The translations under genes were made by a program, and so were the position numbers. A DNA stretch of 64,000 nucleotides from Promethearchaeati archaeon (GTDB taxonomy: Archaea > Asgardarchaeota > Heimdallarchaeia > Heimdallarchaeales > Heimdallarchaeaceae), in the NCBI GenBank assembly GCA_013166775.1, contig JABLTJ010000002.1:32001-96000 (forward strand), given 5' to 3'. Under the pieces are notes generated by a model. It searched no databases. It saw only the letters and a list, made by a program, of their open reading frames with translations, and was not told the origin of the DNA. Shown piece after piece: positions 11,588-16,711 of the stretch (positions are counted from its first letter, which is position 1; every line of letters begins with the position of its first letter).

Positions 11588-12571
11588 TTAGTATTTATTA
11601 CCGCAATTACCACAGAATTTAGCATCAGGAGCGTTCTTACCACCACATTCAGTACAGAACTTTACAGAGCCTTTCTTCTCATCGTCTGTAGGGTCTCCAC
11701 AGTGAGCACAGAATTTTGCTATTGCTGATACTTTATTTTTACACTGATTACATTCGATAAAGGCTGTTTCTACTTCTCCTTTTTTCTCTATTTTTTCAGC
11801 TTGTTTTATTTCGCTTCTTGAGAATAGATTGTTTACCATCACTGCACCTGTTAGTCCACTTCCACCTTCAGGAAGTGCATCAGCTACTTGAGCCATTCCT
11901 GCATATTGTTGGACTTGGCCTGCTGATACACCAGATCTCATCCAGAACAGTCTGTCTCTGTATTCTGGAGTTGTATCTATACCACCAAACTTCAAGTTCT
12001 TTAGGTTTACACCCATTTCCATTAAATCGCCTTTAACTTCTTTTTCAATGAAATCAGAAGTTTTACCTAGATTTGACATTACATCAACTATACCTTTTTC
12101 AGATAATTTGCTGATTACTGATTCAACTACGAATGATCTAAAGAAATCATTGAAAGCAGCTGTTGTAAAGATGTTTCTGTTTCCTGCTATTTCAAATGCG
12201 AATTTTTGAGGATCATTTACCTTATAGAAATAATCTCCAAAGAATTGCAATGGTGCTAATTCTTGTGTTTGACTTCTTCCACCGAATTTTCCTTGAAAAT
12301 CACTCATTGATAGAAAAATCACTTGACAGTTAAATGGTGATTTGTCGAATCCAACTATTTTTGATAGAAATGTTGTCAATAGTGGAATATTCTTTGTTTT
12401 CATAAAGTGTCTTCCGGATTTAAGAACATCATAAGCGATAGAGTCTTTGATGAATACTGCGACTTGGTTAGGCATTACATTGACCTGATCTCCCCAGTTT
12501 ATTGTATCTCGGGGATGTCGGTACATTATTTCGTCTCCACGTCCTGTTGCCCATTCAATTACTTCAACCAT
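11588..12571 (-). CDS. SPFH (band 7) domain protein with two C-terminal double zinc ribbons
   Basis: EVIEW...VMPNQVAVFIKD...GRH..KTKNIPLL N-terminus typical of SPFH/virion-core-like proteins; CNQC..FCAHCG and FCTECG..FCGNCG. Confidence 0.88.
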   Translation of the reverse strand: MVEVIEWATGRGDEIMYRHPRDTINWGDQVNVMPNQVAVFIKDSIAYDVLKSGRHFMKTKNIPLLTTFLSKIVGFDKSPFNCQVIFLSMSDFQGKFGGRSQTQELAPLQFFGDYFYKVNDPQKFAFEIAGNRNIFTTAAFNDFFRSFVVESVISKLSEKGIVDVMSNLGKTSDFIEKEVKGDLMEMGVNLKNLKFGGIDTTPEYRDRLFWMRSGVSAGQVQQYAGMAQVADALPEGGSGLTGAVMVNNLFSRSEIKQAEKIEKKGEVETAFIECNQCKNKVSAIAKFCAHCGDPTDDEKKGSVKFCTECGGKNAPDAKFCGNCGNKY

Positions 12572-12644
12572 TTTTATACCTCTTTAATTTTTAACCTTAA
12601 TCGGTTCTAAATCAAAATATTGTAAAACTCACTTTTAAAGGTAT

Positions 12645-14018: not shown

Positions 14019-16711
14019 CTCTCCTTGATTTTCTGAGCTAACTCTCTGGAGCTTCCAGTTCTTAATTTTTTGAATTGACGTTGAAGCAACAGAAAAGCAA
14101 CAATTGCTAACAAAATTAGCCCTCCTCCTATCCCTGCCATCATTCCGTGAGCTAAATCTCCGATAGGTGTACGTAGAAAATCAACTCCGATGATTAAGGA
14201 AAGACCATAAGCAGCAGATCCTAGTACAGTCAATAGCAGAACTAGCCAGATAAAATTATCAAAAACATAGATTACAAATGTCCTTATTGTTAGCCAAATT
14301 GAGTCTAATATTTTCTTGATTACCTTTGGTATCTTCTTCAAGAATTCCCAGAATCTCTTTGGATGGAAAATCCAATGACCAAAAAGTAAGAATAGTCCAC
14401 CTATCGAAATAGTGAGTATTGCTGTAACATTCCAGCTTCTTGTAAATCCTATAGCTAAGCCGGATATTACAGCTGTTAAACCAAAAATTCTGAAGATAAG
14501 AACTCTCTGTCTGTATAATGCTTTTATCATTCTTTTGAACACATTATAAACAAATCTCAAGACAGCTATTCGTGAAAGTAGTAAGCTAAATACAATTACA
14601 ACAATTCCAATCCAGATTAAATGATCTGTAACAACACCAAAGCTTATTCTTCCTCCTTGCCCTGCATATATTAGAATAAACCAAATACCTACTGCTGCAC
14701 CTATAATCCTTAGAAACTCTTTTAGAATAATCCCCCAGTGTTCTCTGATGAATTTAGTTAAGGCGACCAATCTAGTCCATATTCCTTTTAGAACATTTCT
14801 AACAAAATTATAAATTGCTTTTAAGGAATTATAGAAAACATCTATTGCGATGAATCTAATACCTCTCCATACTGTTCTATAATGATGAATTGGAATGTAT
14901 AATACACTGACAGCTATAATAACTGCATACAACCATTCAAAGCTTTTAGAAATTTGGATTGAGAAATAAATTATTAGGATAATAGCGGTAATATCTAATG
15001 TATAGAGAAGAACTTTTAACCAATTTTCTTTCAAGAATCGCAGGGTATTAACGAAAACTCTCCAAAGATATCTAATTGGTCCTGTCAACCATAAAAGAAA
15101 ATCTTTCAGTAATAAACCGACATGTTTGAAGAATCTACCAATCAATCTGAGGATATAAATACGAGTTAATGTTTGAAAAACTACTAAAAATAATATTACC
15201 CAACTTGTATAAAAAGATGGTTTTACGAAATACCAGAATATAACACTCAATGCAACAATTGTTGCTACTCTCATGAATTCTTTGAGCGATATCCACCAAT
15301 ATTCCTTAAAGAAATTGTAAATCGTAATTACTACTTGTTTTAGTAATCTAGCTGCATTTTTCAAGAAATTAAGTAATAGAACAGGTTCGACAATTATTCG
15401 AGCAAATATGAACATAAATGCTCCAATAGCTATTAAAGAGGCAGTAAGAGGAAGCCAATTTCCATATTTCTCTATTGCCAATTCTAGTACAGCTCCTAAG
15501 ACCACCAGGAGCAAACCAGTTACTCTAACAGAAGCCTTCTTATATCGGATGATAAATCTCCAGACCTCTATTCTGGAGAAAACTTCAGCAATTAAAACAA
15601 TACCTGCTCCAATAATATAATAATAAATCTGTAAAAAGATCCAGAATTCCAAACCAGTCAAGATAATTATTCCAAATCCTATTGCAAAGAAAATAAGTCT
15701 ATTAAATTCTTCAAGAATCCTTTTCCAGTGTTTTCTGAAGAATTCTTCTATTTTCCTAAGTATGAATTTAGTAGCCCTGTAGATAGCTTTTAGAATGAAA
15801 TGTCTTGTAAAAGTTTGAGAGATTATAATAAATAATATTACCCAGCCTGCATAGAAGTTTGGTTCAACAAAAATCCAGAATACAATACACAAAGTGATGG
15901 TAGCAGCTATTCGTAAGAATTCTTTCGATATTATCCACCAGTGTTTGCCAATAAATTTGAAAAAAGAAACTAGAGCATCCCAAATCCCTCTTGATACTCT
16001 CTTTACAAACATAGCAATTTTGTAGAAAATTCGATAAAAGATATCTACTACAATAAATCGTATTGCTCTCCATATTCTTCTGTGATGATGAATAATAGGG
16101 TAAACACAGCTTACTGAAAAAAGGATTATTTTCCAAATTGCCATTTCCCAAGTTACTGCTATATAGATAATAATTGCTAAAGAAACAACATCAAGGGAGT
16201 ATAGAATAACATTCTTCCAGTGAGTTTTGAACCATCTGAAGAAGGAAATAAGCGTGTTCCATAAAAATCTTATGGGTTTCTTTATTAGTTCCCAGATTCC
16301 TTGATCCAGAAAAGTTAACTCAAAGAATATTCCCACTAAAATGGCCCCTATTCCCCAATAAACAAAGAATGTATCTCCGAGAACAGAAGTCAGAAAATTT
16401 TCTCCAAAAGAAATTTGCTTTATAACTGAGCTTAAAATCAACAAGAAACCTATAATTATCAGAAATACTCCAATTTGAACCTTCTTTCTCACTGTCAGAT
16501 TATATCTTAGCATTTGAGTTGCTAGATAAAAAGTGATCACAACTGACACTACTATTAATGAAACTGATAGTATGTTTAATAAAACCTCAAGTGCCACAGA
16601 TCCTTCTAAAATCAAAGAGAAAACAAATATCGCTACAATTAGAACAACAAATAGATAATAGAAAATATTCGACAAATAACTATGAATATTCTTTTCTTTT
16701 TCTACTTTCAT
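14006..16711 (-). CDS. Large polytopic membrane protein built from internal hairpin/amphipathic-helix repeats
   Basis: 901 aa; recurring (H/Y/N)W..(L/S)KEF.R and IHH.R.(I/V)WR.IRFI motifs; overlaps the next gene by 13 nt. Confidence 0.8.
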   Translation of the reverse strand: MKVEKEKNIHSYLSNIFYYLFVVLIVAIFVFSLILEGSVALEVLLNILSVSLIVVSVVITFYLATQMLRYNLTVRKKVQIGVFLIIIGFLLILSSVIKQISFGENFLTSVLGDTFFVYWGIGAILVGIFFELTFLDQGIWELIKKPIRFLWNTLISFFRWFKTHWKNVILYSLDVVSLAIIIYIAVTWEMAIWKIILFSVSCVYPIIHHHRRIWRAIRFIVVDIFYRIFYKIAMFVKRVSRGIWDALVSFFKFIGKHWWIISKEFLRIAATITLCIVFWIFVEPNFYAGWVILFIIISQTFTRHFILKAIYRATKFILRKIEEFFRKHWKRILEEFNRLIFFAIGFGIIILTGLEFWIFLQIYYYIIGAGIVLIAEVFSRIEVWRFIIRYKKASVRVTGLLLVVLGAVLELAIEKYGNWLPLTASLIAIGAFMFIFARIIVEPVLLLNFLKNAARLLKQVVITIYNFFKEYWWISLKEFMRVATIVALSVIFWYFVKPSFYTSWVILFLVVFQTLTRIYILRLIGRFFKHVGLLLKDFLLWLTGPIRYLWRVFVNTLRFLKENWLKVLLYTLDITAIILIIYFSIQISKSFEWLYAVIIAVSVLYIPIHHYRTVWRGIRFIAIDVFYNSLKAIYNFVRNVLKGIWTRLVALTKFIREHWGIILKEFLRIIGAAVGIWFILIYAGQGGRISFGVVTDHLIWIGIVVIVFSLLLSRIAVLRFVYNVFKRMIKALYRQRVLIFRIFGLTAVISGLAIGFTRSWNVTAILTISIGGLFLLFGHWIFHPKRFWEFLKKIPKVIKKILDSIWLTIRTFVIYVFDNFIWLVLLLTVLGSAAYGLSLIIGVDFLRTPIGDLAHGMMAGIGGGLILLAIVAFLLLQRQFKKLRTGSSRELAQKIKERWQD

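Follow-up and report, generated by a model that had tools for sequence, protein, structure and literature searches.

Hrd1/synoviolin, gp78/AMFR and RNF170 are membrane RING ligases in which a multi-pass membrane region is followed by a cytoplasmic RING with the canonical E2-contact residues, an order that recurs, with a RING predicted to be cytoplasmic, in the protein called B below, which like Hrd1 has eight transmembrane segments (TMs). The ubiquitin and ESCRT proteins of the Asgard archaea have already been studied, and the Heimdallarchaeia are the Asgard class closest to eukaryotes. AMFR ubiquitylates the reticulon domain of FAM134B (PMC10247366), and a survey of ER-shaping factors has dated most of the endomembrane system to a time later than the archaeal ancestor (PMC9804665). 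In the small RING E3 of Caldiarchaeum subterraneum, which is encoded in a ubiquitin operon, mutation of I30, W58 and R69 impaired ubiquitylation (PMC5654768); B, in contrast, is a multi-TM protein with a dedicated partner gene. Our literature search found no paper on a membrane ligase by which these archaea would tag their membrane cargo, and no description of an archaeal reticulon-like protein. Here, we report that the gene for B and its partner gene A are coupled in translation and have been inherited as a pair across the Heimdallarchaeia.

The locus lies within a 64,000-nt stretch of contig JABLTJ010000002.1 (the window, whose numbering is used throughout) from a Heimdallarchaeaceae genome of 3.85 Mb that is 89% complete. 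Three open reading frames on the minus strand, A, B and C (SPFH), are co-oriented, B and C being separated by 73 nt (12572..12644), and their coordinates confirm this part of the first-pass annotation. Gene A (14006..16711) encodes a polytopic protein of 901 aa with a conserved 4-TM N-terminal domain, about nine repeats and a C-terminal hairpin. Gene B (12645..14018) reads 457 aa from a GTG; its eight TMs pair into four hairpins, with two long linkers of amphipathic character, and are followed by a zinc finger of the C4 type and then a RING. Gene C (11588..12571) encodes a soluble, YdjI-type protein of 327 aa with a Band_7_1 domain and two C-terminal zinc ribbons. An overlap between A and B stands as annotated, but its length of 13 nt requires the GTG start; B likely starts at the TTG at 14009, leaving a 4-nt TTGA overlap with the stop of A, because its homologues show Met at position 4 and the database protein has 454 aa.

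An A-like gene is found directly upstream of B in 39 loci, overlapping or abutting it within 1 nt in 37 of them, and these loci span the Heimdallarchaeaceae, two related families and the Hodarchaeales, all within the Heimdallarchaeia. The TM family of B was present in 45 of 399 Asgard genomes, all of them Heimdallarchaeia, and was not found in the other Asgard classes of that set. Among 1.8 billion representatives it gave 64 matches, the named well-scoring ones being from Heimdall or Hodarchaeales lineages, and a metagenome scan added one further A-B locus. At the N-terminus the A-like genes of the three lineages show homology to one another (E 1e-6 to 3e-3), and in this comparison A was the only match below E 0.01 in its own proteome. 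Some genomes depart from the pattern: one has a truncated B only and no A, another has A as a broken fragment, and two closed genomes from this family yielded neither gene with these queries. Within the genus the orthologues of A and of B are 41–53% identical, while the SPFH protein is 80–87% identical.

The first reading of A as a 901-aa repeat membrane protein proved correct, the protein having 21–22 TMs and true internal repeats. Hydropathy and a structure model place the TMs in about 11 hairpins of 40–58 aa, whose outer loops are short; the linkers that connect the hairpins, mostly of 20–55 aa, are rich in K/R and W/F. The repeat region (residues 136–806; 14294..16306, minus strand) is built of units of about 85–90 aa, each a basic amphipathic helix plus a short TM hairpin, and residues 146–327 and 545–735 are 41% identical. 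Eight of nine testable linkers were amphipathic above shuffles (p<0.05), the longest with a helical periodicity of 97–99 degrees. A repeat HMM counted nine units here and 6–9 in other members of the family. The total length of the orthologues varies between 501 and 1474 aa, and their internal copies reach 91% identity; the repeats thus expand time and again, while both ends stay conserved. Neither Pfam nor NCBIfam assigned A to a family, the reticulon and REEP profiles PF02453 and PF03134 did not match it, fold searches returned generic hairpin matches only, and an Atlas search gave no usable feature matches for A or B; the structure model itself was of low confidence (pTM 0.27). Tape-measure-like matches (P0078, P0081, P0083) were treated as compositional, since they are confined to the amphipathic stretch and the A-B pair is single-copy and set among chromosomal genes.

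Close homologues of B in the Heimdallarchaeaceae are annotated as hypothetical or RING proteins. The annotated count of about eight TMs in B holds, as four hairpins, although a Kyte-Doolittle scan on its own called seven. The hairpin/amphipathic unit of its TM region (residues 21–329; 13032..13958, minus strand) weakly resembles that of A in hhalign (probability 92.8%, E 4e-7, 91 columns), and A and B are therefore probably paralogues, a resemblance to which shared composition may contribute. In the computed topology the TM hairpins of both proteins are short, and all basic amphipathic linkers and the RING lie on one side, which the positive-inside rule predicts to be the cytoplasmic one; the topology prediction for which the first-pass annotation had called agrees with a cytoplasmic RING.

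Paralogous polytopic heterodimers are common among permeases, and conservation in B extends to TM glycines, a proline and an acidic ExxDLN motif. Both points would fit a transporter, channel or sensory complex made of ordinary spans, with no effect on curvature, in which the RING would do no more than control the level of the complex. However, no transporter family gave a match, no conserved ATPase or substrate-binding gene lies nearby, and tandem duplication has left the A-like proteins with anything between about 11 and 30 TMs, a poor fit to a fixed pore fold; we regard such a function as very improbable.

The RING of B lies exactly where it was first placed, at 12729..12854 (minus strand, C389–C430), and is preceded by a C4 zinc finger (C365, C368, C379, C382; 12873..12926, minus strand) that packs ahead of it, as in the C-terminal domains of GATOR2 and IFT-A proteins. 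That this Cys/His domain would fold as a RING, a premise of the annotation, is supported by a model that superposes on the RNF165 RING with an rmsd of 1.4 Å over 49 residues (TM(target) 0.78), and the isolated domain scored above the cut-off of PF13639. Its best sequence matches are the active ligases RNF165/Arkadia (E 1e-8), and among many other RINGs its profile also matches synoviolin (E 5e-6) and AMFR (E 2e-4). The zinc ligands (C389, C392, C405, C408, H413, H416, C427, C430) form a C4-H2-C2 variant in all aligned homologues, which differs from the C3H2C3 set of the RING-H2 domains in Hrd1 and gp78. The eight ligands and P428 were invariant in 46 of 46 homologues, with I/V391 in 46, W420 in 45 and K/R/H431 in 44, although these homologues were chosen by a Cys/His/Trp pattern and the conservation of the tryptophan is partly by construction. 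In the Caldiarchaeum RING E3 the positions equivalent to I391, W420 and K431 are I30, W58 and R69 (PMC5654768), and other Asgard RINGs likewise share such Ile, Trp and basic residues. HRD1 was the top fold match for the first four helices of B, but this was not taken as homology, as the searches gave it no sequence support. No sequence homology to Hrd1, RNF170 or reticulons was found, and for the suggestion that the locus is ancestral to ERAD ligase–SPFH assemblies the sequences yielded no evidence.

The zinc finger and RING together, over their whole length and by both sequence and fold, best match domains of IFT144 and GATOR2, and the GATOR2-type tandem is structural in the SEA complex (PMC9646525), so that the RING in B may have a non-catalytic role. 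A and B might then be mainly a membrane-shaping or structural scaffold, with the tandem serving for dimerisation or docking, as it does in GATOR2/SEA and IFT-A. The full RING is kept in many Hodarchaeales B proteins; one Hodarchaeales genus retains the coupled pair with a single C4 finger in place of the RING, and two further B homologues have lost RING ligands, so that the pair does not depend on the RING. A Lunapark-like zinc finger was considered for the RING-less Hodarchaeales variant and discarded, as Pfam lists none there and only weak generic zinc ribbons were matched. Against a mainly structural role speak the conserved E2-contact residues and basic "linchpin" position, and the presence of TM-RINGs of B's type in a ubiquitin operon. 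We consider the mainly structural reading unlikely, and B is probably an active E3. The tandem is common to B and to WDR24, MIOS and WDR59 of GATOR2/SEA and IFT144 and IFT122 of IFT-A, but those proteins are soluble β-propeller/solenoid coats with structural RINGs, whereas B carries its tandem attached to a TM region.

The partners that such a ligase would need are encoded in the genome. The ubiquitin system on which the annotation depended is complete, with two ubiquitins, E1s, two E2s with a catalytic Cys and two UEV proteins, and two Snf7 (ESCRT-III) and two Cdc48 genes are present as well. Of 19 related RING genes, 16 have predicted TMs, B having the most, and a membrane RING is therefore not unusual in this genome. 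On contig C102 two TM-RING genes of B's kind lie between E2 and ubiquitin/E1 genes, and one Hodarchaeales A-B pair is followed, 3 kb downstream, by ubiquitin and E1 genes of the same orientation.

The SPFH family is found in 167 of the 399 Asgard genomes. Gene C has the SPFH domain and double zinc ribbon first read in it (Band_7_1, E 2e-20; no TM), and showed neither a sequence match to solved SPFH proteins nor any hydrophobic segment. Erlins carry an N-terminal membrane anchor before the SPFH domain; the erlin-type scaffold proposed for C has to be given up, C having no such anchor and being of the YdjI type. YdjI of Bacillus subtilis (PMC8581546) is likewise soluble, lacks a membrane anchor and combines a Band_7_1 domain with C-terminal zinc finger(s), but it sits in a pspA-ydjG-ydjH operon, whereas the neighbourhoods of 30 loci showed no such operon around C. 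No PspA (PF04012) scored above the Pfam cut-off in the 89%-complete genome, and its two Snf7 genes lie elsewhere.

As YdjI-type proteins need membrane partners (PMC8581546), A, B and SPFH could form one ERAD-like complex, at least in this genus, with A and B anchoring the soluble SPFH protein as YdjG and YdjH anchor YdjI. The SPFH gene follows B directly and in the same orientation in 7 of 16 informative genomes of the genus and lies within 1.4–2.8 kb in five more, and the zinc-ribbon fusions described below would also agree with a joint function. In nine of the 16, however, B and SPFH are separated by another gene, for a glycosyltransferase, MFS or FTR1 protein, a peptidase or something else, which in many cases runs on the opposite strand, and adjacency was seen in none of 31 A-B loci outside the genus, where several contigs end soon after B. 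The 73-nt leader of the SPFH gene has a conserved promoter-like character of its own, with a TATA-like TTTAAAA at about 12633–12639 that is kept whichever gene is upstream. Thirty sampled genomes from outside the family, incomplete and from related taxa, included 13 with B and no orthologue of this SPFH gene, 11 with such an orthologue and no B, and none with both. In sister genera the SPFH gene is found amid the same flanking genes with no A-B there, and A-B thus most likely moved in beside a pre-existing SPFH gene. Synteny and co-occurrence across relatives largely refute the three-gene module of the first-pass annotation, and a joint complex is improbable. The conserved unit is very likely the A-B pair and not the triad, with SPFH, as its leader and distribution suggest, probably an independently transcribed neighbour in one genus.

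In four genomes (G005, G008, G012, G018) B ends in an in-frame copy of the first zinc ribbon of SPFH, 79–82% identical to it at the DNA level in G008 and G012. The copy has decayed in close relatives, and its similarity fits a local duplication, as which it would count against a joint complex. It is the one hint of a link between B and SPFH.

For the A-B pair, it is likely that the two proteins form a complex; a complex prediction for A and the TM part of B, using orthologues from G022, scored 0.26 against a mark of 0.32 and counts neither for nor against it. A and B would co-assemble in the membrane as a heteromer, and the RING of B would recruit and activate E2~ubiquitin at the cytoplasmic face. 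Membrane proteins would then be ubiquitylated by B, possibly including A itself and perhaps its lysine-rich linkers, and the tagged proteins could be passed to ESCRT or to Cdc48/proteasome. Taken together, and leaving out any step of curvature, a coupled pair that assembles as a complex and acts as a membrane ubiquitin E3 ligase is the reading that we slightly favour. The hairpin-plus-amphipathic-helix array of A might in addition wedge into the inner leaflet and bend, thin or sense curved membrane, and so concentrate the ligase there; we hold this role of A in curvature to be plausible but somewhat less than probable.

The A-B pair is uncharacterised and allows direct tests of whether a polytopic archaeal RING acts as an E3 and whether a hairpin repeat bends membranes. 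As it is confined to the Heimdallarchaeia, with the Hodarchaeales among them, it stands close to where eukaryotes arose, and taking SPFH out of the module avoids a false parallel with erlin/RNF170. More speculatively, and with rather low expectation, the pair could be a dedicated membrane-shaping system in which the length-variable scaffold A bends or thins the membrane and is switched or turned over by its paralogous RING ligase B, a prokaryotic counterpart, and possibly a forerunner, of the proteins that shape the ER and of the ubiquitin ligases of the ER. The likeness to known systems is one of architecture. A shares with the reticulon-homology domains of reticulon, REEP and FAM134B the alternation of hydrophobic TM hairpins with amphipathic helices, predicted in A to be cytoplasmic, although it has about 11 hairpins of 40–58 aa where those domains have two. 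By analogy, with no homology shown, A-B would work as AMFR does on FAM134B and other reticulon-domain proteins: both pairs combine lysine-rich linkers with a nearby membrane RING ligase (PMC10247366), but in A-B, unlike AMFR–FAM134B, the ligase itself bears hairpin/amphipathic units like those of its partner.

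In four genomes (L131:3820-4704, L132:8649-10199, L135:8057-9649 and L058) the first zinc ribbon encoded by the adjacent SPFH gene recurs, in frame, at the C-terminal end of the orthologue of B, the eight-TM protein with a C4 zinc finger and a RING. The copy shares 79-82% DNA identity with the SPFH original in two of the four, and it has decayed in close relatives. In one Hodarchaeales genus (L168-L178) a single C4 finger replaces the RING of B, and these proteins carry long, variable N- or C-terminal extensions with internal repeats in them.

Beside the SPFH gene in the window lies a forward-strand gene for an Eis-like GNAT acetyltransferase (10395-11505), which is frameshifted near 11310; a stop at 11321 ends its ORF and the sequence for the C-terminal part lies in another frame, reflecting either a pseudogene or an assembly error. 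Upstream of A, the polytopic repeat protein gene, two conserved reverse-strand genes (17873-20153) encode proteins of 460 aa, with a P-loop-like motif and a DE motif, and 296 aa, with a nucleotidyltransferase-like N-terminus. Neither has a Pfam match, and their linkage to each other near SPFH is kept across the family. The 589-aa product of a further conserved gene of the neighbourhood (20279-22048, reverse strand) resembles archaeal type IV pilins at its N-terminus and has Ig-like domains, the Pfam matches being weak.

Five genomes of another family of the class (L107-L112, e.g. L107:6822-8998) have a ThiF/E1 gene divergent from the SPFH orthologue, possibly a separate SPFH-ubiquitin link. 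On a Hodarchaeales contig (L187:11401-17725) the genes that come after the A-B pair encode ubiquitin, E1 and a 600-aa protein whose match to E3_UFM1_ligase (PF09743) is marginal, barely over the cut-off. A ubiquitin cluster of the window's own genome, on contig C102 (21170-27788), contains membrane RINGs, in the order E2, a 235-aa protein, a 5-TM RING, a 4-TM protein, a 2-TM zinc finger/RING, ubiquitin (with an acidic N-terminal extension and the C-terminal end STAG) and E1.

Across this whole genome, 12 of 19 RING genes encode a zinc finger and RING in tandem. The same tandem occurs in the eukaryotic coat proteins GATOR2 and IFT-A, for whose zinc finger and RING domain these archaeal genes are a candidate source.
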